A DNA stretch of 64,000 nucleotides from a candidate division WOR-3 bacterium. GTDB taxonomy: Bacteria; Hydrothermota; Tepidihabitantia; SM23-42; CAYGYG01. A program made the translations under genes and the position numbers. The stretch lies in contig CBFGIV010000002.1 of NCBI GenBank assembly GCA_965648915.1, positions 583-64,582 on the forward strand, written 5' to 3'. The notes below the pieces were generated by a model that saw only the letters and a program-made list of their open reading frames with translations, did no database searches and had not been told where the DNA came from. Below, piece by piece: positions 17,331-57,105 of the stretch (the first letter of the stretch is position 1; the number at the start of each line of letters is the position of its first letter).

Positions 17331-17340
17331 AGAGGAATTT

Positions 17341-18810: not shown

Positions 18811-18828
18811 GAGTTAATATGCAGGCGT

Positions 18829-19614: not shown

Positions 19615-19617
19615 TAA

Positions 19618-19944: not shown

Positions 19945-19945
19945 G

Positions 19946-22058: not shown

Positions 22059-22062
22059 AAGA

Positions 22063-22188
22063 GGATATCAGGTCATCGGGGTATCGGGAAGAAGGATATC
22101 AGGTAAACAGAATATCGGGTAATTATGACCCTCTGATCTCCTGGTATTCTGATATTCACTCCCTGATAATCTGTTGTCCTGATAATCT
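22063..22188. repeat. Repeat-rich intra-operon spacer. Two 26-nt imperfect direct repeats (GGATATCAGGT-N9-ATCGGG, starting at 22063 and 22094), plus two CCTGATAATCT copies (22162 and 22178).
   Basis: Read directly from the sequence. The motifs CTGATAT and CTGATAA recur in both orientations, and GATAAT hexamers are Fur-box-like. Confidence 0.5.
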
Positions 22189-22212
22189 TGTTAACAAAAG
22201 TGGAGTTGGAAA

Positions 22213-23181: not shown

Positions 23182-23194
23182 GGGAGAAATCAGT

Positions 23195-24291: not shown

Positions 24292-25668
24292 ATGAAGTAT
24301 TTAATCTTCATTACCTTGATTGGTTTGATTTATTCTTCGGGTGTTTTTGCTTCTTTTCTTAAACTGCCCTATCTTCAGAATCTGCTCGATACCAGTGTTG
24401 TCATCAGATGGGAGACAATAACGGCTCAGGATGGAAAGGTCCAGTATGGATTGAGCATTCTGTATGGTTTGGAAGTGACCCATCTCGATTCAACCACCCA
24501 GCATGAATTGAGGCTTCCGTCACTGATGCAGGATACTGTCTACCATTACCGAGTAATTTCCGGACCTGACACAAGCCCGGACTACACCTTTCATTCCCCG
24601 GTTAAGCCCGATAAGCCTTTCCGTTTTGCGGTCATCGGTGACACGAGAACCGACAGCCTTGCCCACCAGATGGTCATCGATCAATTGCTCAGGGGAGATC
24701 CCAGGCCCGCATTCATTCTCAATACCGGTGATCTTACGGAGAATGGTGCATCATCAGAATATCAGACATTTTTTAATATTGAGAGTTCGCTCCTTTCACA
24801 GGTCTGTCTCTTCCCGGCGCTGGGCAACCACGATCTGGGAAACATAATCAACTGGCATACCTTTTTTGCCTTACCCAATAATGAACGGTGGTATACATTT
24901 CGTTATGGCAACTCAGTATTTCACTGTATCGATAACTATTCACCCTATACCAATGATTCTCCTCAATATAACTGGCTGGTGAATGAACTCTTATCTGACA
25001 GCGCCGATCCGACCATCAGGCATATCTTTGTATTTTTTCATGATCCACCCTATTCTACAAATCTTGCCCACTCGAGCAACCTCACAATCCGGGAGTATCT
25101 CTGCCCTCTCTTTGAGCGGTTTAATATCACTTTCTCATTTCAGGGGCATAATCACTGTTATGAAAGGAGTGTGGTCAATAATATCCATTATACCGTTTCT
25201 GGTGGTGGCGGTGCGCCACTCCATTTCTTCTGGGGTTCTCTCGAGCCCTGGTCCGCCTACCGGGAGACAACTTATGAATTTGTTCTGATCGATATCTGTG
25301 GTGATACAATCTCCTCTCAGGGGATCAAACCGACCGGTGAGACTTTTGATCACTTTTCTATAATTCATCGGCCAGAGCCCGATAGGACCAACCGGTTAAT
25401 CCTCCCGTATAACCCCCGACTCAGAATTTTCCCCAATCCCGCGACCGGGGAGATCAGAATTACCTTTGCTCTTCAGACTCAGGGAATGGTGGATATTTCA
25501 ATTTACAATAGTTCAGGACAGAAGATCGGTTCGGTTATTAAAAAAAATCTTCCGGTCGGTCTTCACAAACTGATCTGGCGCAAGAAGTCTCTTGCCAGTG
25601 GAACTTATCTCTGCTTCTTGAATACACCAACCTTTTCTCAATCGGTCAGTTTCAGATTTATTAGATAA
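24292..25668 (+). CDS. Calcineurin-like metallophosphoesterase (purple-acid-phosphatase-like) with T9SS C-terminal sorting domain
   Basis: Metallophosphatase motifs (FAVIGDTRTD, NTGDLTENG, GNHD, GHNHCYER) and a CTD (RIFPNPATGEIRITF...IYNSSGQKIG...GTYLCFL). Confidence 0.75.
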   Translation: MKYLIFITLIGLIYSSGVFASFLKLPYLQNLLDTSVVIRWETITAQDGKVQYGLSILYGLEVTHLDSTTQHELRLPSLMQDTVYHYRVISGPDTSPDYTFHSPVKPDKPFRFAVIGDTRTDSLAHQMVIDQLLRGDPRPAFILNTGDLTENGASSEYQTFFNIESSLLSQVCLFPALGNHDLGNIINWHTFFALPNNERWYTFRYGNSVFHCIDNYSPYTNDSPQYNWLVNELLSDSADPTIRHIFVFFHDPPYSTNLAHSSNLTIREYLCPLFERFNITFSFQGHNHCYERSVVNNIHYTVSGGGGAPLHFFWGSLEPWSAYRETTYEFVLIDICGDTISSQGIKPTGETFDHFSIIHRPEPDRTNRLILPYNPRLRIFPNPATGEIRITFALQTQGMVDISIYNSSGQKIGSVIKKNLPVGLHKLIWRKKSLASGTYLCFLNTPTFSQSVSFRFIR

Positions 25669-27749: not shown

Positions 27750-28622
27750 ATGAAGGAGACGGGTCAAAAGATGCACCGAAGAACCTTTTTAAAAATCTTC
27801 GGTTTTTTAACACCGATAATTCTCTTCCTGGGGAAGATCCCTTTTGCCCTGGCTGGTAAATGGGAGAAGGGCAAGATTAATTACTGGGTCGGTAAGAGTT
27901 TTAAGCAGAATAATGTCGATTTATCAAAATTGAGCAAGGGGATAATCCATGCCCGGATTAATGGAAAATGGGATGACTATCAGATCCAGCCCCTGAGTGA
28001 TTCTTTTATTGAATGGAATTTAACAAGCCGGCTCAAGGGCCTTGAACGAATTAAAAGCGGGGCAATGCCTGACCTGAGCGGTCCCCATTCGGGTGCGGTC
28101 GCAACTTATGGTGGCTACCGTCTCGACTCCCGGGTCACCATCAACAATGCGATAAAGGGTATAGGTTGTGCACCGAGAGCAGATCGGGTTGAATCTATGA
28201 TTAAGAGATTAAAAGCGACAATTAAATATTCAATGCCGGAAAAGATCGATATTTTAAAATCTTTCTATCAGGACCGGAATCTATTTGACTGGACCAAACA
28301 GACTTCGCTTGAGTTATATACCCAGCCCGATTTTGAGACCCATACCTTTCTTAATTTGATGGAGAATCCAATTGCATCGATTGTCTTTCTTGATAACCCT
28401 TCATTTGAGATAAGGGCAATAACCCGGCTGGTTCATCCTGATGACCGGACTGCATCTAAAGATGAGAGGAATCTCTTGGAATATGTCAATCTGATTCACA
28501 GCTATTTCCATGGTCAATTCAAAAAGGTTTTCATTCTTATGGTATTTTATGTAATTGAACTATTTGATAACAGCCCGGGTAAGATGAAGGGCATCAGAAT
28601 TGTTCCACCATTGTCCGAATAG
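27750..28622 (+). CDS. Hypothetical exported protein with a twin-arginine (Tat) signal
   Basis: N-terminal HRRTFLK followed by a hydrophobic stretch, a canonical S/T-R-R-x-F-L-K match. No recognisable catalytic family. Confidence 0.5.
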   Translation: MKETGQKMHRRTFLKIFGFLTPIILFLGKIPFALAGKWEKGKINYWVGKSFKQNNVDLSKLSKGIIHARINGKWDDYQIQPLSDSFIEWNLTSRLKGLERIKSGAMPDLSGPHSGAVATYGGYRLDSRVTINNAIKGIGCAPRADRVESMIKRLKATIKYSMPEKIDILKSFYQDRNLFDWTKQTSLELYTQPDFETHTFLNLMENPIASIVFLDNPSFEIRAITRLVHPDDRTASKDERNLLEYVNLIHSYFHGQFKKVFILMVFYVIELFDNSPGKMKGIRIVPPLSE

Positions 28623-28634
28623 CGGAGACTCAGT

Positions 28635-29633
28635 ATGAAATATAAAGATGCAGGTGTTGATCGAGCAGGTCTGGGTTCGATAAAAAAGAGAATCAAGTTG
28701 CTTGCCCGAAAAACCTTCAATGCACGAGTCCTGAGTGAGATTGGACTCTTTGGCGGGCTCTTTGAGATCAGAGGGTTTAAGCGACCGGTCCTGGTTGCCA
28801 GTACGGACAGTGTGGGGACCAAGATTATGATCGCGGCGATGGCGGGAAAGCACCGGTCGATCGGGATGGATATTGTCAATCACTGTATCAATGATATCCT
28901 TACCCTGGGTGCCCGGCCCTTATTTTTTCTCGATTATATTGCATATACCCGGCTGGAACCAGAGGTTATCGGTGAAGTTGTTGAGGGGATGGCCCAGGCC
29001 TGTCGTCAAGAAGGAGTGGCGCTGATCGGAGGCGAAACCGCTCAACTGCCTGGCTTCTATCCTGATGGTATTTATGACCTGGTTGGTTTTATCGTTGGTG
29101 TTATCGAGAAAGGAGATGTTATTGATGGGAGAAGAATCAGGCCGGGTAATCTGATCGTCGGTTTTCGTTCCAATGGCCTTCACACCAATGGCTATTCATT
29201 AGCACGAGCAGTCTTATTCAAAAATAAGAGATACAGTATATCCACCTATCTACCTGGACTTAAAAACAGCCTCGGCACTGAATTGCTGAAACCCCATATC
29301 TCATATCATAAAAAACTCAGACCTCATTTAAGAAGTATAAACGGATTGGCTCATATTACCGGCGGTGGTTTTTATGAGAATATTGAACGGATCTTACCAG
29401 AGGGTTGCCGGGCCTGCATTGTGAAATCGAGCTGGCAGATACCCCCGATCTTTAATAAAATTCAAGAAATAGGGAATATTCCGGAAGAGGAAATGTATAA
29501 TGTATTTAACATGGGTATTGGTATGGTTGCGTTTGTTGATCGGATGGTTTCTAAGAGACTTAGTGAAATCGGTGGGATTGAAATCGGGTTTGTGGAAAAA
29601 GGGCATAAAGAAGTAGTATTGTTAGAAAGATGA
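28635..29633 (+). CDS. purM: Phosphoribosylformylglycinamidine cyclo-ligase (AIR synthetase)
   Basis: N-terminal YKDAGVD, the GLFGG motif, and full-length PurM similarity (332 aa). Confidence 0.9.
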   Translation: MKYKDAGVDRAGLGSIKKRIKLLARKTFNARVLSEIGLFGGLFEIRGFKRPVLVASTDSVGTKIMIAAMAGKHRSIGMDIVNHCINDILTLGARPLFFLDYIAYTRLEPEVIGEVVEGMAQACRQEGVALIGGETAQLPGFYPDGIYDLVGFIVGVIEKGDVIDGRRIRPGNLIVGFRSNGLHTNGYSLARAVLFKNKRYSISTYLPGLKNSLGTELLKPHISYHKKLRPHLRSINGLAHITGGGFYENIERILPEGCRACIVKSSWQIPPIFNKIQEIGNIPEEEMYNVFNMGIGMVAFVDRMVSKRLSEIGGIEIGFVEKGHKEVVLLER

Positions 29634-30034
29634 TTGATAAACTAAGTAAAATCCTCGAAGTAGATAGTCGTTATCACTATGAAGCTTACATCTTTGTGCT
29701 TGAAGCCCTGGCTTATACTTTAAGAAAACTGGAAGTAAAACGACATATTACCGGCCGAGAACTTCTGGGTGGGATAAGAGATCTGGCACAGGAGAAGTTT
29801 GGCCTTATGGTCAAGAGTGTTTTTGCATACTGGGGCATCAAAGAGACGCTCGATTTCGGACATATCGTTTTTAATCTTGTGGAGTGTGGACTATTGAAGA
29901 AGACCACTGAGGATAAGTTAGAGGATTTTAAGGATGTTTACGACTTTGAAGAGGTATTTGTACGCAACTATCCAATCGATGTTGATCGAGAGAAGATAAG
30001 AAAGGCAAAATTTCTGCCTTCACATCTCGGTTGA
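29630..30034 (+). CDS. Hypothetical conserved small protein (134 aa)
   Basis: ORF with ATGA overlap to purM. No family recognised with confidence. Confidence 0.45.
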   Translation: MIDKLSKILEVDSRYHYEAYIFVLEALAYTLRKLEVKRHITGRELLGGIRDLAQEKFGLMVKSVFAYWGIKETLDFGHIVFNLVECGLLKKTTEDKLEDFKDVYDFEEVFVRNYPIDVDREKIRKAKFLPSHLG

Positions 30035-30145
30035 CAGAGAGGTTTTTTTTCAGTAGAATATATGAAGATGAATCTGGACTTTGAAGTAAAAAAGAGGATA
30101 TCAGTGTTTAAGCAGCAGTCATAATCAAGCAAAAGGAGGTCTGCG

Positions 30146-32230
30146 ATGAAAAAATTGTTAACCTTTGGTGTTATTATTGTTCTATTAAGTTGCGGGCCGA
30201 GAGAAGAGAAACTCACCGGTGAACCCGGGGGAACACTTGTGATTGGCACTATGGAAGAACCTTCTTCTTTAGTCCCATTAAAGCCGTCGGTGACCGGTTC
30301 GAATGAGATTATGGATATGCTCTTCCTCCATCTCCATCGAGTTGACCCCGGGTCCGGTAGGATTATCAACCAACTGGCAACTGCCTGGGAATATTCAGAG
30401 GACCTGAAGATGATCACCTACACATTAAGAAAAGATGTCAAATGGTGGGACGGTAAACCGGTTACGGCCGAAGATGTGCTTTATGCTTTTGAAAAGATGA
30501 AAGACCCTAAGACTGGTTACCCGAATATCACAAGCATCAGAAATATCGAAAAAGCAGAAGTGCTCGGGCCCCATACGATACGATTCAGATTTACTAAAGT
30601 ATACGGTGATCAACTGATCGATTCCGATATCCAGCCTGTCCCCAAACACATCTTAGAAAAGAATCCTGATCTCGATAAGTTTGGTGAAAATCCAGTTGGA
30701 AATGGCCCATTTATTGTGAAGAGATGGATTCGGGGTTCATCCCTGGAACTTGTCGCCAATCCAGAATTTTATCGAGGCCGGCCACCGCTTGATCAGATCC
30801 GATTTATCTTCTACACCGACCTTGAGGCAATGGCCAAAGACTTTGAAGATGGAAAGATCGATATGATAACCGATGTGTCACCTGCCCTTGCCCAGAGATG
30901 GCAGAAGAATCAGAATATCGTCATAAGTTCCCAGCCCGGTTCCAGTTATATCTATATCGGGTGGAACCTGAGACACCCCTTGTTGCAGAATATCGAAATT
31001 AGAAAGGCACTGACTATGGCAATAGATGTGCCAAAAATTCTGAAAGAAAACTTCCTTGATCAGGGAGCGATAGCGGTTGGTCCAATACCACCAAGCAGCT
31101 GGGCATACAACAATAAGATTAAACCAATAACCTATAATCCTCTTGTTGCCCAGGATATCTTATTAAAACAGGGTCTTACTGATGTAGATCGAGACAAATT
31201 CTTAGAGAAAGATGGTCGCCCTTTTGAACTAAATCTGATTACCAACAAAGAGAATACTCTTCGGGTGGCAATTGCCAATCAGGTAGCCAGTCAACTGGCA
31301 AAGATCGGTATCCGGGTTAAAGTTCAAGCCCTCGACCTGAATTCTTTCGTCAACAGCATTCTAACCGGCAAATTTGATGGCTATATAATGGGTTCGCGCG
31401 TTTCTCAGAAGATTGATCCCTCAATATACTGGTATTCTGATCCTCAGCGTGGTCGATATAATCTTGTTGTTTATAAGAACAGAGTCGTTGATAGTCTAAT
31501 TGATGAAGGGCTGGTGGCATTGAGTCGGCGTCGAGCAAAGGAGATCTGGGACAGGTTTCAGGAGATTATCTACGAATCCCAACCATTTACTTTTCTTGTC
31601 ATACCCAATGAAATCTCGGCAACCTATAAGAGGGTCAGAGGGATTAAGGAGAGCGGGCCGAGTATCTATGAGTCTTATGCATACTGGATACCTGAATCAG
31701 AAAGAAGACCAATCGCCGTTGCGGCGACGACACCGCCGACGCCATCACCATCTCCGACGCCGACGACAACTGTCACTACAACTACACCGATAGCACCGGC
31801 TGAAGCTCCTAAACCAAAGACGCCTACTCCACCGGCTCCAAAACCACCACAGATTGTCGAACCGGAAAAGATACTTGAAGCAAGGGCTAAAGCCGCTGAG
31901 ACCCCTCCTCCAGAGACGACTAAACCTGTCGTAACTCCACCGCCTATGCCTAAGCCGGTGATAGAGACCCAGGCTCAGATAATAAAGCGGGTCAATGCTA
32001 TATATCCCGAGGCAGCGCGCGAATTCGGTGCAGAAGGTGTCGTTAAAGTACGAGTCATCGTCGGGGCTGATGGTAAGGTCAAGAATGCAACGGTGGTGAA
32101 GAGTTTTGGCAACGCATTATGTGAAGAAGCAGCACTCCGGGCTGCTCAGCAGTGGGAATTCAAGCCAGCAACTAAAGATGGGGTACCGGTTGAGTCACCA
32201 TTGACTCTTGAGTTCACATTTAAGCCATAA
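30146..32230 (+). CDS. Lipoprotein fusion: family-5 ABC substrate-binding domain (OppA/DppA/NikA-like), a Pro/Thr-rich linker, and a TonB C-terminal domain
   Basis: Lipobox LLSCG. SBP_bac_5-type sequence through ~aa 500. Then a TTPPTPSPSPTPTTT...PKPKTPTPPAPKPP linker. Then a clear TonB_C signature (YPEAAREFGAEGVVKVRVIVGADGKV...AALRAAQQWEFKPATKDG). AGGAGG RBS upstream. Confidence 0.75.
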   Translation: MKKLLTFGVIIVLLSCGPREEKLTGEPGGTLVIGTMEEPSSLVPLKPSVTGSNEIMDMLFLHLHRVDPGSGRIINQLATAWEYSEDLKMITYTLRKDVKWWDGKPVTAEDVLYAFEKMKDPKTGYPNITSIRNIEKAEVLGPHTIRFRFTKVYGDQLIDSDIQPVPKHILEKNPDLDKFGENPVGNGPFIVKRWIRGSSLELVANPEFYRGRPPLDQIRFIFYTDLEAMAKDFEDGKIDMITDVSPALAQRWQKNQNIVISSQPGSSYIYIGWNLRHPLLQNIEIRKALTMAIDVPKILKENFLDQGAIAVGPIPPSSWAYNNKIKPITYNPLVAQDILLKQGLTDVDRDKFLEKDGRPFELNLITNKENTLRVAIANQVASQLAKIGIRVKVQALDLNSFVNSILTGKFDGYIMGSRVSQKIDPSIYWYSDPQRGRYNLVVYKNRVVDSLIDEGLVALSRRRAKEIWDRFQEIIYESQPFTFLVIPNEISATYKRVRGIKESGPSIYESYAYWIPESERRPIAVAATTPPTPSPSPTPTTTVTTTTPIAPAEAPKPKTPTPPAPKPPQIVEPEKILEARAKAAETPPPETTKPVVTPPPMPKPVIETQAQIIKRVNAIYPEAAREFGAEGVVKVRVIVGADGKVKNATVVKSFGNALCEEAALRAAQQWEFKPATKDGVPVESPLTLEFTFKP

Positions 32231-32263
32231 TATAATAAAGATTGATCGGCAATTTAGCAAAAA

Positions 32264-32348
32264 TGCCGGGAGGGGGATTTGAACCCCCACGGTCTTTAAA
32301 GACCAGAGGATTTTAAGTCCTCTACGTCTACCATTCCGCCATCCCGGC
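32264..32348 (-). tRNA. tRNA-Leu (anticodon TAA), type II with a long variable arm; CCA not encoded
   Basis: Manual fold of the reverse complement: acceptor GCCGGGA/UCCCGGC with discriminator A, anticodon loop CUUAAAA, T-arm GGGGG-UUCAAAU-CCCCC, variable arm GGUCUUUAAAGACC. Confidence 0.85.
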
Positions 32349-32792
32349 AAAAAAACTGAAGCCGAAATCTGCTATCAGAATTACTTCCCTTTGATTATAA
32401 CAAAAAGTGACAGTTTGTCAACGAATCGATTTAAATCAAAAATAATCTTACCGAAAATAGATAATTTAATCAAATTAGAGTATCTTCCCAATACTTGAAA
32501 ATATAACCCACACTTTCAGCAGGATGAAAAATAAAAAATTACTTATAAATCACCAACTTTTCAATATCATCATCTTTCTTTATAAAATAAACCCCAGAAT
32601 TCAAATCAATGTCATTCTTGCCTTTATCTATTTTTCTAATTTTTCTTCAGCAACGCCGATAACCATTGAATCCGCAGGGATTACAGCGGAGTCAGATATT
32701 TATTTTTTACACTTTAATGTTTATCCAGCGTTTTTAAGTATCTAAAATTCTGCACAACGATCCGCCATAAAGCGTGGCGTACTGACACTACA

Positions 32793-34058
32793 TTAGTGTT
32801 TTCTCCTGCTCAGGACAGTTTTTTCGTATTTTTTTATTGTGCCAAGCCAGTCCGGGTCAAGGGGTACATTGGAAATAAAACAAAAATAATCCCAGACTGC
32901 ACTGAAAGGCAATGTCTTTGTTCCTTCATAAATACCGAGCCTGGAAATATAATCTTTTCTTTCTTCAGAATCTTTTAATATCTTTATCGGCTCAAGCAGG
33001 GCGTATAATAATGCCTTCTGGACTGAACGGGCACCCAAGACCCAGGCGCCAATACGGTTGAGTGTTGCATCAAAATAGTCAAGCCCGATATAAATTCTTG
33101 AGAGCGCATCGCATCGGACAATTTCAGAAAACAATTCCCGGAGTGTATCATCAAACAATGGTATGTGGTCGCTGTCCCAGCGCACGCCCCGGCTGATATG
33201 AAGCAGAATGCCTTTGATAAATAAAAGCAAAGAGGATATTTTATCCGCAATAGATTCGGTGGGATGAAAATGTCCGAGGTCAAGACAGAGCATTAAATCA
33301 TTCTTTAAGGCATAACTTAAGTAAAATTCAAATGAACCCGTGACAAATGATTCACTACCGATTCCAAAGAGTTTTGGTTCCAGGGAGTCTTTTAAAAATT
33401 TTTCAGGATATTTTTTTGAATATATTTTATCAAGTGAATCTTTGAGCAGACTCCGATAACCGATACGGTCAACACAGATATCCTTCATTCCATCCGGTAT
33501 CCAGAGATTATGGACCGCGGGCATTCTTAATGCCCGGCCAAAATAGGTAGCAATTTCTCGCGCACGACGGACATGCTCAATCCAGAAATCCCTTATATTT
33601 TTATTTTTACTGCTCAAGGTAAATCCATCTTCAGACAGAGGATGGGAGAATAGTGTAGCATTGAAGTCAAGCCCTAATTTTTTTTCTTTTGCCCAGTCAA
33701 TCCAGGATTGAAAATGCTCAATTCCAATCTCATTCCGCTCAATCTTTTTGTCCCCAAAATCACCATAGATTGCATGGAGATTGATACGGTGTCTGCCCGG
33801 GATTAAAGATAGTGCCATTGTTAAATCCTTGCGCAACTCTGAAATATTACTTGCCCTGCCTGGATAATTTCCCGTGACCTGTATCCCACCTGAGAGTCCT
33901 GAACCCTGAGTTTCAAATCCTTTTATATCATCACCCTGCCAGCAATGGATTGAGAGACTTATCTGCGCAAGTCTTTTTATTGCCTGCTCAGTATCAATCC
34001 CAAACTTGTGATATTTTTCACGGGCATATCTATATTGTTCAATAAGCTTATTTTTCAT
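32793..34058 (-). CDS. rhaA: L-rhamnose isomerase
   Basis: The N-terminal region (FGIDTEQAIKRLAQISLSIHCWQGDDIKGFE) parallels E. coli RhaA. 421 aa. Confidence 0.8.
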   Translation of the reverse strand: MKNKLIEQYRYAREKYHKFGIDTEQAIKRLAQISLSIHCWQGDDIKGFETQGSGLSGGIQVTGNYPGRASNISELRKDLTMALSLIPGRHRINLHAIYGDFGDKKIERNEIGIEHFQSWIDWAKEKKLGLDFNATLFSHPLSEDGFTLSSKNKNIRDFWIEHVRRAREIATYFGRALRMPAVHNLWIPDGMKDICVDRIGYRSLLKDSLDKIYSKKYPEKFLKDSLEPKLFGIGSESFVTGSFEFYLSYALKNDLMLCLDLGHFHPTESIADKISSLLLFIKGILLHISRGVRWDSDHIPLFDDTLRELFSEIVRCDALSRIYIGLDYFDATLNRIGAWVLGARSVQKALLYALLEPIKILKDSEERKDYISRLGIYEGTKTLPFSAVWDYFCFISNVPLDPDWLGTIKKYEKTVLSRRKH

Positions 34059-35549
34059 CTATTCTCCTTTACGATTTTTTGCTACTATATTTTGATATGC
34101 TTCTTCATATCTATCCCATTTTTGTTTTTCTTTAGGTTGGTAAACTTTGATATCAAATGAATTCCTGACAATCGCCCGCAGTTGTCCAAGAGACTTTATT
34201 CTTTCTTTTGCTTTTGCCTGGATAAGAAGGTTGCCAATTGCCGTTGCCTCAACTGGTCCGGCATAGACGGTTAAGCCAGTAGCATCCGCAGTGAACTGGC
34301 AGAGCAAAGAATTCAAGGCACCACCACCAATTATATGAATACAGGAATAATCAGTCTGACTTATTTCTCTGACTTCGTTCAAGACTTTCCGATAGGAAAA
34401 GGCAAGGCTCTCCAGAATACAACGTACAAACTGTCCGATATTTTCAGGTGTCTTTTGACCGGTCTTTATACAAAACTCAATTATCTCCTTGGGTAAATTA
34501 TTACTGTATAAAAATCGAGGATCATAGGTATCAATCAAGGAGCGAAATCTCTCTTCGTTTTGGGCAAGTCCAATTAACTCTTCATAAGAATAAATCTTAT
34601 TTTTATCCCATTCCTTTTTGCAATTATGTAATATTCCGAGCCCCATTATATTCTTTAAAAGACATATCCTTCTTTCTACACCACCTTCATTCGTAAAATT
34701 ATAGTAATAGGTCTTATCGTTTATGACCGGTCTGTCCGACTCTATCCCGAGTAGTGACCAGGTTCCAGAACTGATATAGATAAAATCCTTATCCAATGCC
34801 GGGACTGCGGCAATCGCGGATGCGGTATCATGGGATGCAACTGCAATCACTGTTGTATCCTTCAATCCGGTCATTGATGATACCTCACTATTTATCCTGC
34901 CAATACTGGTGCCGGGATTGATGACCGGCGGGAATATATCGGGACTGACACCGAGCACCTCAATGATTTTTTCATCCCATTCGTTTTTATTGATATTATA
35001 AATCTGGGAGGTTGTTGCAAAGGTGAATTCAGCAAATTTCTTTCCGGTCAGAAAATAATTTATGATATCGGGTATAAAAAGGAGTTTTGCGGCCTTTTTG
35101 ATCAGCGGGCTATCGTTGACCACCATCGCATAGAGTTGATACAGGGTATTTATTTCCATAAATTGAATCCCGGTACGTTGATATATCTCTTCTTTAGAAA
35201 TCTTGCTGGTGAATTTCTCAACCATTCCCCTGGTCCGGCCGTCGCGGTAGGAAAATGGCGGTGCAACCAGATTGCCATTTTTGTCTAAGAGCCCGAAATC
35301 AACACCCCAGGTATCAATCCCGATTGAGACAGGCTTTTTCGTTATTTCTTTAGCGCAAATTGACAAACCTTTTAAGATTTCGCGATAAAGATTTTCAATA
35401 TCCCAATGCAAGCCATCCGGCATCTGGATTGTATCATTGGCAAAACGATGCAATTCTTTTATTGTCAATCTGCCTTTTTCTTCAAGTATCCCTGCTATCA
35501 CCCTGCCACTACCTGCACCAAGGTCAATACCGAGATAAGTATCAGACAT
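34059..35549 (-). CDS. rhaB: Rhamnulokinase (FGGY carbohydrate kinase)
   Basis: FGGY N-terminal motif YLGIDLGAGSGRV. 496 aa. Adjacent to rhaA. Confidence 0.8.
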   Translation of the reverse strand: MSDTYLGIDLGAGSGRVIAGILEEKGRLTIKELHRFANDTIQMPDGLHWDIENLYREILKGLSICAKEITKKPVSIGIDTWGVDFGLLDKNGNLVAPPFSYRDGRTRGMVEKFTSKISKEEIYQRTGIQFMEINTLYQLYAMVVNDSPLIKKAAKLLFIPDIINYFLTGKKFAEFTFATTSQIYNINKNEWDEKIIEVLGVSPDIFPPVINPGTSIGRINSEVSSMTGLKDTTVIAVASHDTASAIAAVPALDKDFIYISSGTWSLLGIESDRPVINDKTYYYNFTNEGGVERRICLLKNIMGLGILHNCKKEWDKNKIYSYEELIGLAQNEERFRSLIDTYDPRFLYSNNLPKEIIEFCIKTGQKTPENIGQFVRCILESLAFSYRKVLNEVREISQTDYSCIHIIGGGALNSLLCQFTADATGLTVYAGPVEATAIGNLLIQAKAKERIKSLGQLRAIVRNSFDIKVYQPKEKQKWDRYEEAYQNIVAKNRKGE

Positions 35550-35585
35550 AATCTTTGAGATTAAAACTTTTTATCCGATGATTCT

Positions 35586-35858
35586 TCATTCTCTTTGTTG
35601 TTTCTTTGTCAAGTGCTTCCGTGCCCGGGCACCATTAGCCATGACAAGATAGATACGGTTACTTAAAATCGGGTCTGGAACAGGAAATAAAATCTTTTCT
35701 CCTTTCTTTAGCGTTTTAATTTTATCCTGTAATACTTCAGTCACATCAACCGAGATATTTCCGGCATTGCGCTCTGCCCAGCCCTTTTGCCAGAGGAATT
35801 TGCCGATTTCGCCGATCTCATCAATGATCTTTTTCAATTCAGGATTTTTCATAGACAA
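35586..35858 (-). pseudogene. rhaD: Truncated remnant (N-terminal ~90 aa) of rhamnulose-1-phosphate aldolase (class II aldolase/adducin family)
   Basis: KGWAERNAGNISV matches RhaD KGWDERNGGNLTL. Only 36 nt separate its stop from the rhaB start, so the C-terminal two-thirds, which carry the Zn-binding His residues, are absent. Confidence 0.55.
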
Positions 35859-35859
35859 T

Positions 35860-37911
35860 TCATTCCTCCTGCGGAGTGATTTTCAGGACAATTCCATCTT
35901 TTTTATCAATATGCCAGTATATAAAATTCTGATGCCGGAAATCAATAATCTCGGTCTTGTCTGTTATCAAATCCGTTATTTTATAAATACGGTCCAGTCC
36001 CGCATTAATGGTGAACTTGACACCGCAGGGATTATTATTGTTATTCACTGCAATAAGATAGTAGCTATCATCGCGTCTAAATAATGCGGAATGGATATTC
36101 TTCTCCTTTGTGTGACAATAGATATTTATCGCAAATTCAAGCAAAAGATTGGCGAGCATCTCAGCATCAGGTCTTAAGCCAATGAAGGTCAATCTTCCCT
36201 TTCCAATACTCTGGATATAACCGACGATATAATCACTTCCCGTTGGTAAATTCGTGAACCAGAATGTAGTATTGAGACATTTCGCCATTATCGGGATTCC
36301 CGGGACTTCCTTAAAATAATAGATATAAGGTGATTGGGTATTGATTTCTCTGTTACCAAGCCTGAGCCGGATCTTTCTTGGACTCAATTCATAGCCGATT
36401 ATACCTTCAGGCGCAGGAATATTTAGAATGTTTGCGTCCTGGAGATTATCGTCAAATAAAACCGGCTTACCAATTATAACAAAATGCCCGCCATTCTCTA
36501 TATATTTTAAAATCTTGTTTTGATACTCAGCTGACAGCCATTCTTCACCGGCATAAAAAAGGATTGGTTTATCACACTCATTATAATTCAGGTCAAAAAA
36601 TTCAAAATCTATACCCGTATCATAAAAAGATTTTAATAAATCATCACCAGCATAAATGCCTGATGTTATCTCGTTTTGTTTATTACAGACTGCCTGCTGG
36701 AGAAAGTCTACAGCAATTCCGACTTCACAGCATCTTTTCAAATCAGGTGGTTTAATCTCATTATAAATCTCCACAATTTTTTTGAATACTGAAAATAGTT
36801 CGGGATGCTCAATACCCCATTCATTTATCGGGCTCATATACCAGTTATCGCGGTTTACAAGCATATACCAGTTCCAGCCGGCCGCACCAGCGAGTAATGC
36901 GGAAAGGCATAATAAACGATAATGATTTGCACTTAAAGCGCCGGTTTGATAATGCCAGCCATGCCATATCCCGGATTCAAATTCGGCAATAAATGGTAAT
37001 CTTGAATAGGAAGCGACATAGCGAATGGAAAAGAGAAAATGGCGGTGTTCATCCGGACGCCTGTCAAATTCGTTGGTCGGATAATAATCCGGGGCAGATA
37101 TATCAGCGATCTTTTCCAGTAAGGGCCAGGGCTGGACACCAATGGTATCAACATTGAAATAGATTGGTATATCAACACCACATTTCTGGTAGATCTCTTT
37201 ATTCCACCGCGCAACCTCTTTTGTATACCACAATAAAAAGCGCACGACATCAATCCTTCTACAATCAATCTTTGTTAAATCATCAAATGCGCGGACTTCA
37301 GAGAATCTTGAGTAATCGGTCTTCCATAATCGGTTCAGATTCGTAATATCGCGGTATCGTTTTTCAAGAAATTCCTGAAACATACCCATGGTATTACCGA
37401 GTCCGAGTTGTTCACCATAAAAATTTATGAATGGATGGATTTCATTATCCGGCTGTAAAAGGATTATCCTTCCGCCATTGGTGGCAAAGTATGGTTTCAA
37501 AAATTCTGTTATCTCACGAATCCAGTGGGCTGCCTCTTTTTTAAATTCTAAATGGAGCCGGTGATAAGGGACAAGCCGTTCAGGTATACCAAAATTTATC
37601 CATTCAGAATAGATATAGGGACCGGGTCTGATAATTATATAAAAATCCATTTCACTGAGTAGTTCCAAGAAAGATTTTAAGTCTCTTCTCGGGTCGGTCT
37701 TACCGGTAAAATCGTATTTATTGACTTCAACCTCGTGGAACTGCCAGCAGACATAGGTTGATACAATTTTAAGTCCGAGTCCTTTGACCTTATCAAGAAT
37801 TGCCTTCCAGGATTCAGGTGCGAGCCGCCAGTAATGGACCTCACCGCTGAGCAGGGGAATTGCCTTTTCATCAAGATAGAGTTTTTTTTCTTTTATAAAA
37901 AGGTTAAACAT
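35860..37911 (-). CDS. Glycoside hydrolase, GH35-like (possibly GH42) beta-galactosidase family
   Basis: GEVHYWR and YVCWQFHEVEVNKYDFTG correspond to GH35 motifs (G..HY.R, YV.WN.HEP..G.YDF.G). 683 aa. Confidence 0.7.
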   Translation of the reverse strand: MFNLFIKEKKLYLDEKAIPLLSGEVHYWRLAPESWKAILDKVKGLGLKIVSTYVCWQFHEVEVNKYDFTGKTDPRRDLKSFLELLSEMDFYIIIRPGPYIYSEWINFGIPERLVPYHRLHLEFKKEAAHWIREITEFLKPYFATNGGRIILLQPDNEIHPFINFYGEQLGLGNTMGMFQEFLEKRYRDITNLNRLWKTDYSRFSEVRAFDDLTKIDCRRIDVVRFLLWYTKEVARWNKEIYQKCGVDIPIYFNVDTIGVQPWPLLEKIADISAPDYYPTNEFDRRPDEHRHFLFSIRYVASYSRLPFIAEFESGIWHGWHYQTGALSANHYRLLCLSALLAGAAGWNWYMLVNRDNWYMSPINEWGIEHPELFSVFKKIVEIYNEIKPPDLKRCCEVGIAVDFLQQAVCNKQNEITSGIYAGDDLLKSFYDTGIDFEFFDLNYNECDKPILFYAGEEWLSAEYQNKILKYIENGGHFVIIGKPVLFDDNLQDANILNIPAPEGIIGYELSPRKIRLRLGNREINTQSPYIYYFKEVPGIPIMAKCLNTTFWFTNLPTGSDYIVGYIQSIGKGRLTFIGLRPDAEMLANLLLEFAINIYCHTKEKNIHSALFRRDDSYYLIAVNNNNNPCGVKFTINAGLDRIYKITDLITDKTEIIDFRHQNFIYWHIDKKDGIVLKITPQEE

Positions 37912-37914
37912 TAT

Positions 37915-39444
37915 TTACTCCATGATATTATTTAAATCTTTAAATTGATTTTTGATTGAAGGATAGAGCGTCCTATACAATTTGTAGTATTTTTGATAGA
38001 TTTCAGAATCTTTATCCGGTTTTGTGATACCGGTCTCATAGATCGTCATTTTACAGGCTTCTTTTGCATTTCTATAAACTTTGGTTCCGACACCGGCAAT
38101 TAGTGCAGCGCCGAATGCTGCACCCTCGGTTGCATTCACGGTTACAATATCAAGGTTAAAGATGTCTGCCATTATCTTTCGCCATAACAGAGACTTTGCA
38201 CCACCACCCGAGACCCGAACCCGATTAAATCTTATTCCCATATCCTTTAATAATTCCAGGCAGTCCTTTAAGCCGAATGTTATACCTTCGATCACAGCGC
38301 GGGCAAGATGGGGTCGGCTATGCTTCAATGATAAGCCAAAGAATAAACCCCTTGCATAAGGGTCAGGATGGGGTGTCCTTTCTCCCGAAAGATAAGGGAG
38401 AAATACCAACCCTTCAGCACCAGGTGGGATTGTGCCTGCCTCTTTTGTAATCAAATCATAGATATCAATCCCCTTATTTTTTGCGTAAATCTTTTCATTG
38501 CTGTATAACAGATCCCTTAACCATCTCAAACTGCCACCGGCAGAAAGCATCACACCCATCAAATGCCACATATCAAATACTGCATGGCAATAGGTGTGCA
38601 GTCTGCCGTTTTTATCATACCGATATGTATCAATTGCGGCAAATACGACACCAGAAGTGCCGATTGTTACCGATATCGTTCCTGGCTCATATATTCCAGT
38701 GCCGATTGCTTGGGCTGCCTGGTCACCAGCACCGGCAATAACCGGGGTGTCTTCTCTTAGACCGGTCAATCTTGCAGCATTCTTGCTCACATAACCACAT
38801 ACCGCCGGTGATTCATAAACCGGTGGTAGCCATTCCCTTTTTATCTTCAGTCCATTTATTATCTCATCTGACCAGTCTCTCTTTGCTACATCAAATAGAC
38901 AGGTTCCTGAGGCATCTGCCACATCCATACCCTGGGTTTCAGTGAGTTTGAAGCGCACATAATCCTTGGGCAAAAGGATATGGGCAATCTTTTTGTAGTT
39001 CTCGGTTTCATTGTTTTTTATCCACAGAATTTTACCAGCAGTAAAACTCGGCAGACAGGGCTTTCCCGCTATCTTTATCATTCTTTCTGCGCCGATAATG
39101 CGATTTATTTTTATACACTCTTTTACCGTGCGCTGGTCATTCCAGAGGATACAATTTCTTAAAACATTTTTTTTATTATCAAGGATGACCAACCCGTGCA
39201 TCTGTCCGGTCAGCCCGATTCCTGCGATGCGGTTCGGATTGGTGCGGGATTTTGCCAGTACCTGTTTAATCCCCTTTATCGTTGCCTTCCACCAGTCTTC
39301 GGGATTCTGCTCAGACCAGTTTGGCTTCGGTATGTATACAGGATATTCGTTTGTAGAAGTGGCAATGATATCGCCATCAGAAGCAATCAAAACTACCTTT
39401 GCACCGGTCGTACCAATATCAATCCCCAGGAGCAATTCTTTCAT
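37915..39444 (-). CDS. xylB: Xylulokinase-like FGGY carbohydrate kinase
   Basis: LGIDIGTTGAKVVL N-terminus and FGGY C-terminal motifs. 509 aa. Adjacent to the xylose isomerase gene. Confidence 0.75.
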   Translation of the reverse strand: MKELLLGIDIGTTGAKVVLIASDGDIIATSTNEYPVYIPKPNWSEQNPEDWWKATIKGIKQVLAKSRTNPNRIAGIGLTGQMHGLVILDNKKNVLRNCILWNDQRTVKECIKINRIIGAERMIKIAGKPCLPSFTAGKILWIKNNETENYKKIAHILLPKDYVRFKLTETQGMDVADASGTCLFDVAKRDWSDEIINGLKIKREWLPPVYESPAVCGYVSKNAARLTGLREDTPVIAGAGDQAAQAIGTGIYEPGTISVTIGTSGVVFAAIDTYRYDKNGRLHTYCHAVFDMWHLMGVMLSAGGSLRWLRDLLYSNEKIYAKNKGIDIYDLITKEAGTIPPGAEGLVFLPYLSGERTPHPDPYARGLFFGLSLKHSRPHLARAVIEGITFGLKDCLELLKDMGIRFNRVRVSGGGAKSLLWRKIMADIFNLDIVTVNATEGAAFGAALIAGVGTKVYRNAKEACKMTIYETGITKPDKDSEIYQKYYKLYRTLYPSIKNQFKDLNNIME

Positions 39445-53370: not shown

Positions 53371-54204
53371 ATGTCTGGATTTTTTGAAGGACTGCACAAT
53401 GCACCGGTGGCTGTAAAACTAATCGTCTCTTTTGGTATCCCGGCAGCTCTGGCTATTGGCTTAGGGATTGCCCTCGCCTTCGTGAAAAAAGTTGGCCTTT
53501 TAACCTGGATACTCTACATCTGTAATCTGATCATCTGTATCATAATCTTTCAGATGTTACCCGATTTTGTCAGAGCTGGTGGCCCCCTGGTCGGTGTCTT
53601 GATTTATATCTTTATTCTCCTGATCACCTATATGATTGAAAGGTATTTTACTCTCCATAGAGCCAAAGGGCGGTCGCCGATGAGTGAATTTATGCACAGC
53701 TACATCCAGCATATTTCTGAGAAGAATTTTGATGCAGCAATTAATGACTGCGATATGCAGGGTGGTTCGGCGGCAAATATTCTTAAGAGCGGTTTACAGC
53801 AGGTTGTGAAGGGTTCGGGAGAAAAGGCCCAGTTGACCAAGACTGCCTTTGAGACAAGGAGGATATTCGAAGAGGCAATTGCCCGTGAGACCCCACTCCT
53901 TGAGCGGAATTTAATCGCCCTTACGACTATTGCTTCGATCGCAACGATGGTTGGACTCTTAGGGACAACGATCGGAATGATTCGTGCTTTCCAGGCAATG
54001 GCCCATGCTGGTGCCCCGGATGCTATCCAGCTGGCGCGGGGTATTTCCGAGGCACTCTTTAACACCGCGGGCGGTCTTGCCAATGCAATCCTTGGTATCC
54101 TTTCCAACAACTTCTTCGTTAACAAGGTTGACCGTTTCACCTATGACATCAATGAAGCGGTCTATGATACACTTGACTACCTGGAGCGTCTCGAAAAGAA
54201 ATAA
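53371..54204 (+). CDS. exbB: MotA/TolQ/ExbB proton-channel family protein
   Basis: Conserved C-terminal TM region LIALTTIASIATMVGLLGTTIGMIRAF...ALFNTAGGL. Confidence 0.85.
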   Translation: MSGFFEGLHNAPVAVKLIVSFGIPAALAIGLGIALAFVKKVGLLTWILYICNLIICIIIFQMLPDFVRAGGPLVGVLIYIFILLITYMIERYFTLHRAKGRSPMSEFMHSYIQHISEKNFDAAINDCDMQGGSAANILKSGLQQVVKGSGEKAQLTKTAFETRRIFEEAIARETPLLERNLIALTTIASIATMVGLLGTTIGMIRAFQAMAHAGAPDAIQLARGISEALFNTAGGLANAILGILSNNFFVNKVDRFTYDINEAVYDTLDYLERLEKK

Positions 54205-54215
54205 CGGAGGCCAAA

Positions 54216-54890
54216 ATGGCAGTTCGTAAAAAACCACGCGTTGGCATCACCATCGATATGACGCCGATGGTGGATATCGGCTTCCTCCTGGTCATCTTTT
54301 TTATGAGCACCTATCATGCTCGACCACCCGAGACACTCAGCGTGGAATTACCATTATCCCGCTCACCTTTTAAGGTTCCGGAATCGGATGTTATGATTTT
54401 AACCATCATCCCACCGGAAAGGGCATATAATATTGCAGAGAGTATCAACCCTTCGGCGCTCTTGAAGACAATCGCCGATTATCAACTGCCCGTTGCTCAG
54501 GGAGGTTTGGGGTTGAAACGGACAGTTGCGATTGATCGTGCTGTGCATGAATTCAAGACAAAGGAGAAGATCTTAGAGACGATTGCCGAGGTGGCAAACT
54601 TTACACCACAACAGCGAGCGGCACGTGCGGATAGTCTTCTGATCTGGTGGAATTTAGGCCGGGAATCGGCCCAGCCCATAAAATTTGATGATGTCGGGCG
54701 TCTGATCATTGATGAGCGGATAAGAAATCCACGGCTCCGTCTGGTGGTCAAGGCGGATAAGAAAGTTCAATCGGGTGTAATCCTCAGATTGATGGAAGTT
54801 CTTCAGGATCCCAAGGTTAATATGCTACGGTTTAGCATGATGACGATGCTGGAAGAGACCGGCTCCGCCATCATGACACATGGAGGATAA
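54216..54890 (+). CDS. exbD: ExbD/TolR biopolymer transport protein (long form)
   Basis: N-terminal MTPMVDIGFLLVIFFM motif. 224 aa. Confidence 0.8.
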   Translation: MAVRKKPRVGITIDMTPMVDIGFLLVIFFMSTYHARPPETLSVELPLSRSPFKVPESDVMILTIIPPERAYNIAESINPSALLKTIADYQLPVAQGGLGLKRTVAIDRAVHEFKTKEKILETIAEVANFTPQQRAARADSLLIWWNLGRESAQPIKFDDVGRLIIDERIRNPRLRLVVKADKKVQSGVILRLMEVLQDPKVNMLRFSMMTMLEETGSAIMTHGG

Positions 54891-55473
54891 TATGGCAGTA
54901 GTCGAAGGAGCACAACGGGGTGGTAAAAGGCGACGCGGTCGAATCATCAATGACCTGACGCCAATGGTAGATATTGCATTTCTACTTGTGATCTTCTTTA
55001 TGACGACAACGGTCTTCCGTGAACCCCAGGCGATCGAAATCGCTTTACCTCCCAAGGGGACGGTCCCGACCGCCCAATCGAATGTTATTACTATATTCAT
55101 CGATTCGCTCGGCAATACGACCAAACAGTTAGCAGATGAGCCGCCGGTGCCAATCAGGCTTGATTCGATAGAATATTATCTAAGGATAGAAGAGCGGAAG
55201 AATGTGGAGCGTCAACCCGGTGGCCAGGAGTTACTTGCCCAGTATGACGCATTACCTGAAGGCGACCGGAAGGATAGCCTTGAGAAATTTATCAAGCGGA
55301 AGGTTTCGAAACTAGTCGTGCTGGTTGACGTCCATGGTAAGTCTCTCTATCAGGATATGGTCAGGGTTATGGATCAGGTGCAACAGGCAGGTATTGTTCG
55401 ATTCAGTATCATCCCGCACATTGTAGAAACACCACCACCCACCAGGACCAAGAAAGGAGGTAGAATAAGATGA
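54880..55473 (+). CDS. exbD: ExbD/TolR biopolymer transport protein (second copy)
   Basis: LTPMVDIAFLLVIFFM motif. 197 aa. Confidence 0.8.
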   Translation: MEDNMAVVEGAQRGGKRRRGRIINDLTPMVDIAFLLVIFFMTTTVFREPQAIEIALPPKGTVPTAQSNVITIFIDSLGNTTKQLADEPPVPIRLDSIEYYLRIEERKNVERQPGGQELLAQYDALPEGDRKDSLEKFIKRKVSKLVVLVDVHGKSLYQDMVRVMDQVQQAGIVRFSIIPHIVETPPPTRTKKGGRIR

Positions 55474-56225
55474 TGAATGGAAGATTCTGGTTCCCCCCAA
55501 TCGGTAAGAGAAGCCCGATCGTCCAGATTGCAAGTAATAACCTGCGTACCGCTTATTACATCACCAACGGTTTGATTTTCTTGCTGATTTTTCTGGTTTT
55601 TGCTTATGTAAAATATCAACAGTGGCAGTACCAGCAGAGGATTAAGAAATTGGGATCGACTACAGGTAAGAAGGTAATAACATTGACCTATGCTCAATTA
55701 GGACCACCGCCTTCAATTGCCGGAAGTGAAGAGGCGAGTGCGCAGGCAGCGAGCGGTGGCGCCCGGGCGGCCGCACCAGCCGTGGGTGTTCCAAAGCCAG
55801 TACCGGATGAAGAGGCTATTTCGGAAACAGCACCAACCCAGGCTGAGATCTCAGGTGTCAGTCTTGTTGGCTCGGGAACCGGAACCGGTGTTGGTTCGGG
55901 GACAATCATTCAGGTTGAGGAGATCCCGGATATCAATGCCTTTGTCCCTTATGAGGTTGAACCGAAGATTATCAGTCAGCCACCTTTAATCTATCCTGAA
56001 TTTGCCCGGGTTGCTGAACAGGAAGGGACAGTATATGTTAAGGCCCTGGTTGATCTGGACGGTTCAATTATGAGGGTTGTGGTGATTAGAAGCTCGGGTT
56101 CACCGATACTCGATTCGGCGGCAGTCGGCTGGGTTTATGACTGGAAGATGTCGCCTGCCCTCCAGAACCAGAAACCGGTTCGGGTCTGGGTTGCCAAGCC
56201 GATTCACTTCAAATTACAGAAGTAG
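55470..56225 (+). CDS. tonB: TonB family energy transducer (Gly-rich rather than Pro-rich linker)
   Basis: N-terminal TM anchor and a TonB_C domain (LIYPEFARVAEQEGTVYVKALVDLDGSI...LDSAAV). Confidence 0.75.
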   Translation: MMNGRFWFPPIGKRSPIVQIASNNLRTAYYITNGLIFLLIFLVFAYVKYQQWQYQQRIKKLGSTTGKKVITLTYAQLGPPPSIAGSEEASAQAASGGARAAAPAVGVPKPVPDEEAISETAPTQAEISGVSLVGSGTGTGVGSGTIIQVEEIPDINAFVPYEVEPKIISQPPLIYPEFARVAEQEGTVYVKALVDLDGSIMRVVVIRSSGSPILDSAAVGWVYDWKMSPALQNQKPVRVWVAKPIHFKLQK

Positions 56226-56346
56226 TTTCGTTAAAAACGCTCTATCCGATAAAAGGTTTGTCGGGAATAATACCGAATGCCTCCTGGTATAATTAGATAG
56301 CAATGAGTGCCTCGGATTAAGCGGGGCACTCAGAAAGGAGGCTAAA

Positions 56347-57105
56347 ATGCGCGCCAATTTTAACCAAACCGATCTGGCGGATTTAGGTACCCGGAGCCCA
56401 GTAATAAAGGTGTATACCTCCAATCTCAAACGAGCCTTTTACTCAACCAATAGCCTGATATTTCTTATCATCATTCTGGTCTTTGCCTATATCAAATACC
56501 ACCAATGGCAGTATCATCGATGGCGTGATCTACAGGTAAAGAGAACAGAAACCAGAACAATAATTATTGAACCCTGGCGAATTGGTCCCCCGCCATCGAT
56601 AACCGGAAATGGCGGTGATGGAGGAATTGGGAATGGTACAGGCGGAGTTAAGTCGGTCGCACCGGCGGTCGGTGTTCCCAAACCAGTGCCTGATGATAAG
56701 GCAGTTCAAATCACAATACCAACCCAATTCGACATTGCCGGAACCGGCATCTTCCAGGGTAATGGCGGGATAGGTTATGGGGTGGATATCAAAATTCAGG
56801 ACATCCCTGATATTGATACCTTTATCCCCCATGAGGTTGCTCCCCGGGTGATTTCAAAGCCACCGTTGATCTATCCCCAGCCTGCGGTCCTGATGGAACA
56901 GGAAGGCAAGGTCTGGATCAAGGCCCTGGTCGACCTTGATGGTTCAATAATGAAGGCAGTGGTGTTGAAGAGCTCAAGTTTTCCCCTGCTCGACAGTGCG
57001 GCAGTTGCAAATATTTACGGGTGGCGATTAAGTCCAGCCCTGCAGAATAAAAATCCAGTGCGGGTCTGGGTAACGATGCCGATTGAATTCAAACTGCAGA
57101 AGTGA
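56347..57105 (+). CDS. tonB: TonB family energy transducer, tandem paralogue
   Basis: Same architecture as the upstream gene and about 55% identical to it. Own extended -10 (TGGTATAAT, 56285-56293) and a GAGTGCC/GGCACTC hairpin (56305-56331) in the leader. Confidence 0.75.
   Translation: MRANFNQTDLADLGTRSPVIKVYTSNLKRAFYSTNSLIFLIIILVFAYIKYHQWQYHRWRDLQVKRTETRTIIIEPWRIGPPPSITGNGGDGGIGNGTGGVKSVAPAVGVPKPVPDDKAVQITIPTQFDIAGTGIFQGNGGIGYGVDIKIQDIPDIDTFIPHEVAPRVISKPPLIYPQPAVLMEQEGKVWIKALVDLDGSIMKAVVLKSSSFPLLDSAAVANIYGWRLSPALQNKNPVRVWVTMPIEFKLQK

Follow-up and report, generated by a model that had tools for sequence, protein, structure and literature searches.

What is the role of a protein that carries, in a single chain, a substrate-binding domain of the oligopeptide type and the C-terminal domain of TonB? 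This question is raised by a gene at positions 30146..32230 (+) of a 64,000-nucleotide stretch of DNA from a candidate division WOR-3 bacterium (GenBank assembly GCA_965648915.1, contig CBFGIV010000002.1), hereafter the window. The gene is a single open reading frame (ORF) of 694 codons plus stop, with an ATG start. According to its translation, its Pfam and NCBIfam matches and its homologues, it encodes a lipoprotein in which a substrate-binding protein (SBP) domain of the SBP_bac_5 family is followed by a linker and a TonB_C domain. We find that this fusion is conserved across several bacterial lineages, and we tentatively propose, at a rough probability of 0.4, that the protein is a binding protein held by a lipid anchor, with a TonB-type arm that docks on the TonB boxes of outer-membrane transporters and thereby couples import to periplasmic capture.

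A conserved fusion of two transport domains

The architecture read in an earlier note on this DNA, namely, a family-5 binding protein joined through a TonB-like linker to a TonB_C domain, is borne out by Pfam, where both domains score far above their cut-offs: SBP_bac_5 (PF00496) at residues 73-426 (E=1e-79, 268.8 bits against a cut-off of 32.4) and TonB_C (PF03544) at residues 619-693 (E=7.8e-21, 74.8 bits against 24.6). The NCBIfam model tonB_Cterm (TIGR01352) is likewise matched above its cut-off (63.5 bits against 27.1). An identical protein has been deposited at NCBI as 'MAG: TonB family protein [candidate division WOR-3 bacterium]' (MAG, metagenome-assembled genome), and database labels for the family are either 'TonB family protein' or 'peptide/nickel transport system substrate-binding protein'.

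Both domains stand together in a single protein of 670-725 residues in more than 100 clusters (at 90% identity). Of the best 120 homologues, which reach down to 34% identity, nearly all have this length and both Pfam domains. A scan of species-representative genomes yielded 328 relatives, among which the best 80 loci were analysed; 75 of the 82 family ORFs in these loci are fused, and the fusion is kept down to about 31% identity. The lineages that bear it are WOR-3, Stahlbacteria, TA06, Cloacimonadota, Edwardsbacteria, UBP2 and Ca. Hydrothermus; the assemblies come from NCBI, JGI, ENA and Logan, and six complete chromosomes are among them. The earlier note had raised the possibility of a frameshift or of an assembly join between two separate genes. 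Such an artefact is ruled out by the identical NCBI protein, by the recurrence of the same single ORF in more than 100 independent clusters, the six complete chromosomes included, and by the predominance of fused ORFs in the analysed loci. The sole split case (locus L044, 8409-10398, ORFs of 458 and 211 residues) comes from a MAG of 3.8x coverage and probably reflects a frameshift in sequencing, not a naturally unfused gene.

The substrate-binding domain spans residues 29-520 (30230..31705, +) and belongs to cluster C (Opp/Dpp/Nik-type) by Pfam, a PDB sequence search, AlphaFold2 (AF2) modelling and Foldseek. The sequence search retrieves B. subtilis AppA (1xoc, E=3e-58). The AF2 model, with a predicted local distance difference test (pLDDT) score mostly above 90, is that of a normal two-lobed binding protein, and Foldseek matches it to AppA (1xoc, E=6e-47) and to C. 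jejuni NikZ (4oet, TMt 0.89). These are the closest structures to the domain, and the ligand of AppA is a nonapeptide. The domain is strongly conserved, with many invariant Trp, Asn, Arg and Asp residues, in an alignment of 66 homologues from which all anatomical counts given below are taken. In its SBP_bac_5 domain, two-lobed fold and lipid anchor, the protein resembles the Opp/App/Nik lipoproteins, such as AppA and NikZ. Unlike these, it continues into a linker and a TonB domain, has no OppBCDF encoded beside it and falls far short of every NCBIfam equivalog cut-off, the nearest models being Opp4A (197 bits against a cut-off of 650), NikA and DppA. Pfam detects only SBP_bac_5 in this part of the protein and does not find the BtuF-type class III/cluster A fold (Peripla_BP_2).

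The C-terminal domain occupies residues 602-694 (31949..32227, +), as delimited by Pfam, NCBIfam, AF2, Foldseek and the alignment, and includes an N-terminal extension of the pattern PKPxVIxxxxxxK followed by YP (Y620-P621); in the AF2 model, the folded domain starts at the conserved PPKPSVIT segment, before the Pfam boundary. The best structural matches of this model are TonB on FoxA (6i97_D; TMt 0.83, root-mean-square deviation 1.6 Å) and TonB on BtuB (2gsk_B; TMt 0.82), compared with a TMt of only about 0.4 for TolA domain III. The YP, Gly and W-x-aromatic positions align with those of E. coli TonB, and across the family Y620 is nearly invariant and P621 invariant. Judged by its predicted fold, the domain is a genuine TonB-type domain and not a TolA-type one.

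The likeness to the TonB proteins of E. coli and Pseudomonas extends from the fold and these motifs to the conserved N-terminal extension of the domain and to a Pro-rich spacer of similar length. Unlike TonB, the fusion protein has neither a transmembrane helix nor an SHLS-type motif and carries instead a cleavable lipoprotein signal and a 490-residue binding domain; its gene is not next to exbBD, and an invariant Cys stands where TonB has Phe or Leu. The protein thus possesses the domains that define both parent families and lacks one defining feature of each: the permease genes in the case of the binding proteins, and the transmembrane helix and exbBD linkage in the case of TonB. The invariant residue, Cys659 (codon 32120..32122, +), aligns with the Phe of the E. 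coli TonB segment NMFERE, which we take to be F202, the site at which engineered cysteines trap TonB dimers. Cys659 and the lipidated Cys are the only cysteines in the fusion protein of the window, and Cys659 could be either a buried core residue or an intermolecular disulfide partner.

The TonB-type domain is only 33-34% identical to the two TonB domains encoded elsewhere in the same genome, which are themselves 52% identical to each other, and the fusion is therefore old. By the same comparison, a recent capture of the genome's own TonB domain is rejected.

Membrane anchor and linker

The N-terminus, MKKLLTFGVIIVLLSC, is predicted to be a lipoprotein signal peptide (residues 1-16; 30146..30193, +). 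The lipobox that the earlier note had picked out is found here as L-L-S-C, and its Cys16 is invariant in all 66 aligned homologues. The sole hydrophobic segment of the protein is the 12-residue core of this signal, ending in the lipobox, and there is no N-terminal transmembrane helix. A short charged tether follows the lipidated Cys (residues 17-28, GPREEKLTGEPG; 30194..30229, +), with the family consensus C-x-K-K-E-E: Lys is found at +3 in 46 and at +4 in 37 of the 66 sequences, and Glu at +5 in 42 and at +6 in 39. Lys followed by acidic residues after the Cys is present in 38 of the 66 family members compared to none of the nine other predicted lipoproteins from the same flanks.

This tract bears on the location of the protein, because it resembles a signal for the export of lipoproteins to the cell surface, C-X-K-(D/E)2-X, described in Capnocytophaga (PMC5080379). 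Were it to act like this Bacteroidota signal, the SBP domain would capture peptides outside the cell, in a manner analogous to RagB, SusD and BtuG, which are lipoproteins with a charged post-Cys tract that capture substrate for a TonB-dependent transporter. The enrichment of the tract over other lipoproteins and the membership of the organism in an FCB-type group bearing the type IX secretion system (T9SS) are in line with this possibility. However, position is critical in the Capnocytophaga signal, which has no Lys at +4 (PMC5080379), and the family motif is displaced by one residue from the published optimum, with its acidic residues at +5/+6 instead of +4/+5. Furthermore, the background of nine lipoproteins is very small, and the signal has been shown in Bacteroidota only. 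RagB/SusD and BtuG, unlike the fusion, are surface-located proteins of unrelated folds that have no TonB domain; TonB boxes face the periplasm, so that a TonB domain on the surface would be left with no known partner. We consider a surface location very unlikely.

Between the two domains runs a linker rich in Pro, Thr, Glu, Ala, Val and Lys (residues 521-601; 31706..31948, +) that is predicted to be disordered except for one helix. The Pro/Thr/Lys-rich spacer of the earlier note is thus real: across the family it is 66-113 residues long (median 88; about 80 in the protein of the window), with 18% Pro and 16% Thr. Immediately behind the SBP fold, the linker opens with a conserved, strand-prone junction, R-P-IAVAATT-PP (peptide RRPIAVAATTPP, residues 521-531; 31706..31738, +), for which the family pattern is R-[RK]-[VI]-x-[VI]-A-x-x-[LI]-P/G. 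This junction is loosely similar to the D-box of TonB, as can be seen when P-IAVAATT-PP is compared with QP-ISVTMVT-PAD of E. coli. The D-box, a Pro-flanked pattern of hydrophobic and hydrophilic residues, is captured by ExbD, and it has been argued that this contact, rather than the transmembrane helix, transmits force (PMC10907165). Conceivably, then, the protein is an energised TonB paralogue that dispenses with the transmembrane helix: its lipid would sit at the inner membrane, an ExbD dimer would grip the junction as it grips the D-box, and the protein would exert a pull on transporters with its own binding protein attached. A hydrophobic-x-hydrophobic start is indeed present where the Pro-rich region begins in 56 of the 66 members. 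The published D-box pattern, in contrast, is satisfied in only 11. In addition, the junction may be no more than the terminal part of the SBP fold, a globular domain of about 500 residues separates the membrane from the motif, and none of the loci links the gene to exbBD; an energised paralogue appears highly improbable.

The linker helix, PEKILEARAKAAE (residues 573-585; 31862..31900, +), is located mid-linker and is recognised both in the AF2 model and by the motif PE..LLE, which is conserved in 56 of the 66 members compared to 4.6 expected from shuffles. The pLDDT of the helix is about 78 in the full-length protein and about 50 in the isolated C-terminal fragment, which might mean contact with the SBP domain, although the gap could simply reflect the depth of the alignments (66 against 38 sequences). 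Such contact would be compatible with a decoy or regulator, that is, a non-energised TonB domain that fills TonB boxes and throttles import, perhaps tuned by the ligand occupancy of the SBP domain so that the periplasmic substrate level feeds back to uptake. Periplasmic C-terminal fragments of TonB inhibit transport in E. coli. The intact TonB-type fold and motifs, the lack of a transmembrane helix and the location of the gene away from exbBD are also in keeping with this role. A pure inhibitor, however, would hardly be expected as a single-copy, constitutive-looking, lineage-wide gene with a strong promoter and Shine-Dalgarno sequence of its own, and we saw no sign that the state of the SBP domain is coupled to the C-terminal domain. 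In our judgement, the protein is unlikely to be a decoy. The conserved linker helix, the lineage-wide conservation of the fusion and the possibility that the lipoprotein is not in the inner membrane are all additions to the earlier note.

The linkers also contain a TonB-box-like motif, [DE]T.[AVIT]V, in 24 of the 66 members compared to 4.2 in shuffles, which we considered as a site for self-binding or TonB binding. The motif is confined to one clade and absent from the protein of the window, and, in the AF2 model of a member with a good copy, it is disordered and forms no strand. Such a binding site is not supported.

Genomic context and a proposed docking model

The nearest unfused relatives (loci L080, from Acidobacteriota, and L075) are followed by OppB, OppC and OppD, whereas no OppB/C homologues were found around the fused genes in 1.24 Mb of flanks. 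The gain of the TonB arm therefore coincides with the loss of operon linkage to an ABC permease. The window conforms to this trend: as the earlier note had observed, there is no oppBCDF nearby, and neither Pfam on the annotated ORFs nor six-frame tblastn with OppB/C/D detected an opp or other ABC permease, an Opp ATPase or a TonB-dependent transporter in it. Likewise, exbB and exbD do not adjoin the fusion gene in the window or in any locus examined. A search with the OppB encoded beside an unfused relative returned only Gemmatimonadota and Eiseniibacteriota names and was uninformative on the Opp permeases of WOR-3.

No universal neighbour or operon partner of the fusion gene was identified across the loci, and synteny is clade-specific. 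The arrangements include a glycosyltransferase/epimerase/MscS block upstream, a divergent M19 dipeptidase with pyr genes, and pyrR-pyrB-pyrC downstream, and housekeeping neighbours comprise purM and ligA in the window and pyr genes, ClpXP, trigger factor and tRNA synthetases elsewhere. A core-like gene among housekeeping genes, with no transport partner in cis, might encode a structural tether of the envelope, in which the TonB-like domain would hold peptidoglycan or an outer-membrane protein, the lipid would hold the membrane, and the SBP domain would serve as a spacer or as a binding module not involved in transport. TonB_C does occur in many non-canonical contexts, for example, in 3-9 tandem copies or at the N-terminus of the MxcH receptor, and in this respect the fusion is akin to other proteins that use TonB_C as a portable module outside canonical TonB. 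Unlike MxcH-type and multi-TonB_C proteins, it pairs TonB_C with a transport binding protein. The conservation and the normal two-lobed model of the SBP domain exceed the needs of a spacer, and the C-terminal domain is far nearer to transporter-bound TonB than to TolA; a purely structural role is not likely.

Ton-related genes adjoin the fusion gene in particular clades. Four loci (L069, L070, L077 and L082) have a canonical tonB immediately upstream in the same orientation. In another clade, all five loci with upstream sequence (L040, L043, L045, L046 and L053) encode, immediately upstream and in divergent orientation, a 657-residue BtuB/CirA-like transporter whose TonB box reads PEIVVTA. In each of the five, the intergenic region contains, on the strand of the transporter, a cobalamin riboswitch (Rfam RF00174, 82-92 bits against a gathering score of 31.5; L040 2084-2326, L043 1941-2129, L045 2343-2518, L046 3319-3502 and L053 241-425, all on the minus strand), and, on the strength of this match, the transporter is identified as a B12-regulated BtuB. 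The fusion gene itself does not lie downstream of the riboswitch. Because no riboswitch was found in 22 loci of other clades or in the window, the B12 link is not generalisable to the family. Plug domains are present in 2 of the 33 large ORFs of the flanks, and this BtuB-like transporter is one of the two. Taken as a pair, the BtuB-linked and tonB-adjacent clades are suggestive of a functional tie to the Ton system, without being statistically strong. In one sub-clade, a second Plug-domain family (L007:9161-11599(-); family 31 in L012, L025, L038, L044 and L078), which has no riboswitch, follows the fusion gene at a distance of about 6 kb.

A candidate inner-membrane partner is family 17, a multipass membrane protein of about 400 residues with some 6-8 transmembrane-like segments and a highly charged tail. 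It adjoins the fusion gene in nine loci, in three arrangements (for example, L053:2828-4039(-) and L060:8639-9871(+)), in one of which it starts 26 bp past the fusion gene, and it was found only beside the fusion gene. Family 17 has no Pfam, NCBIfam or PDB match.

The docking model named at the outset fits the intact TonB-type domain, the TonB-like length of the spacer, the lost permease linkage, the Ton-related contexts and the proteolytic lifestyle of the organism. Under this model, the lipid would hold the protein to a membrane on its periplasmic side, most economically the inner membrane, from which the spacer, like that of TonB, would then cross the periplasm. The C-terminal domain would bind, by beta-strand addition, the TonB box exposed by a ligand-loaded outer-membrane transporter. 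The transporter would thereby be physically joined to the binding protein, and the imported substrate would be captured at once, to be handed over to an inner-membrane transporter encoded elsewhere. In an organism that secretes proteases, oligopeptides would be the probable substrate, with corrinoids a possibility for the BtuB-linked clade.

So construed, the fusion would be the covalent counterpart of contacts made in vitro by E. coli TonB, which has been reported to bind FhuD (Carter 2006) and BtuF (James 2009), as recounted in PMC3813593. In both cases, a binding protein is joined with the periplasmic region of TonB, and one clade of the family has a BtuB-type B12 transporter as a neighbour. 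Unlike in the E. coli systems, where the contacts were observed in vitro and their role in vivo is unsettled, the link is covalent, the SBP belongs to cluster C and not to the FhuD/BtuF class, and the TonB part has no connection to the motor. The suggestion of the earlier note that the protein docks on TonB boxes, as a capturing device or as a competitor of TonB, gains circumstantial support from the TonB-type fold, from the presence of transporters in these lineages and from the Ton-related neighbours in two clades, and in either form it may hold. The note named peptides or metallophores as ligands; the only typeable transporter among the neighbours imports neither of these but cobalamin.

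Several observations weigh against docking with capture. Only certain clades have the Ton-related neighbours, and the clade of the window is not among them; the 22 loci of other clades have neither a riboswitch nor a transporter near the fusion gene, and the adjacency, by a rough count, is only suggestive statistically. The sole transporter that can be typed imports cobalamin, the binding protein of which, BtuF, belongs to a different SBP class. A non-energised TonB domain on TonB boxes should compete with the real TonB and inhibit transport, judging from work on E. coli. The conserved K-K-E-E after the Cys could signify export to the cell surface, which would be incompatible with the model.

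A more self-contained version of docking would have the motorless TonB domain, on binding alone, trigger or bias the release of substrate into the periplasm, where the tethered binding protein would trap it. This version, which leans on the reported sufficiency of TonB lacking its transmembrane helix for the release of cobalamin from BtuB, seems to us quite unlikely. If true, it would amount to a second coupling of outer-membrane import to capture, independent of the ExbB-transmembrane connection and possibly involving ExbD gripping the D-box-like junction, and it would provide a natural genetic proof that TonB and binding proteins act as one unit.

We found no paper on this architecture or on WOR-3 together with TonB, and a 2025 survey of the evolution of TonB and TolA does not mention the SBP-TonB_C arrangement. 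How substrate gets from a TonB-dependent transporter to its periplasmic binding protein, and whether TonB serves as the scaffold, has been unsettled since the in vitro reports on FhuD and BtuF. A lineage-conserved fusion of both partners argues, in the manner of a Rosetta stone, that the contact between TonB and binding proteins is biologically meaningful. It implies, moreover, that the TonB C-terminal domain is deployable in the absence of the very transmembrane helix that defines TonB. The fusion is also a compact construct, with two well-understood folds in one polypeptide and, in the BtuB-linked clade, a defined TonB-box partner, and it may be the main route of peptide capture in a widespread, uncultured, protease-secreting lineage.

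Sister architectures and the size of the family could not be derived from a HMMER search with the C-terminal profile, which was swamped by proteins containing 3-9 TonB_C repeats, and a word-index search with the C-terminal domain alone gave only fragments. Public proteins with 3-9 tandem TonB_C domains are numerous, for example, P0141 (1017 residues, 9 stretches) and P0133 (1080 residues, 8 stretches).

Expression signals and surroundings in the window

The fusion gene is preceded by a promoter-like site, TTGACA-17-TAGAAT (30031..30059, +), which matches the consensus at 11 of 12 positions, the match to the consensus being its only basis, and which lies directly past the stop of the upstream ORF. 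A Shine-Dalgarno sequence, AAGGAGG (30133..30139, +), is read 6 nucleotides 5' of the ATG, and a convergent tRNA-Leu gene (32263-32349) is located 3' of the fusion gene. Given its own promoter-like site, the strong AAGGAGG and the convergent tRNA-Leu downstream, the gene looks like a stand-alone transcription unit. Upstream of it are ligA, an ORF of 290 residues (27750-28622, +), purM and an ORF of 134 residues (29630-30034, +); the two ORFs that flank purM have no Pfam match.

The regular Ton motor of the organism is encoded about 21 kb downstream, where ExbB, two ExbD proteins and two canonical TonB paralogues follow one another (53371..57105, +). Both of these TonBs (55470-56225 and 56347-57105) have an N-terminal transmembrane helix, and, together with the fusion, they account for the three TonB_C domains that the earlier note had counted in the window. 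The wider cluster (50839-57105, +) includes a PstS-like binding protein and a tetratricopeptide repeat protein ahead of ExbB, the two ExbDs and the tandem TonBs.

C-terminal sorting domains of the T9SS are present in four proteins of the window (11-1927, 5283-7616, 24292-25668 and 42638-44269), a set that consists of two gingipain-like C25 peptidases, a metallophosphatase and an M28 aminopeptidase. An amino-acid permease is also encoded in the window, and the combination of secreted C25 and M28 peptidases with this permease makes growth on peptides likely for the organism.

Downstream of the fusion gene, on the opposite strand, is a cluster for the utilisation of rhamnose and galactosides (32793-42462, -), with RhaA, two FGGY kinases, GH35, a xylose-isomerase-like TIM barrel protein and a GH106 rhamnosidase. 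Finally, a region with a strong negative AT skew of -0.17 to -0.21 (14023-23581, +) encodes membrane subunits along with Complex1_49kDa/NiFeSe-like and NADHdh proteins and is probably an Mrp/Mbh-type or complex-I-like module.

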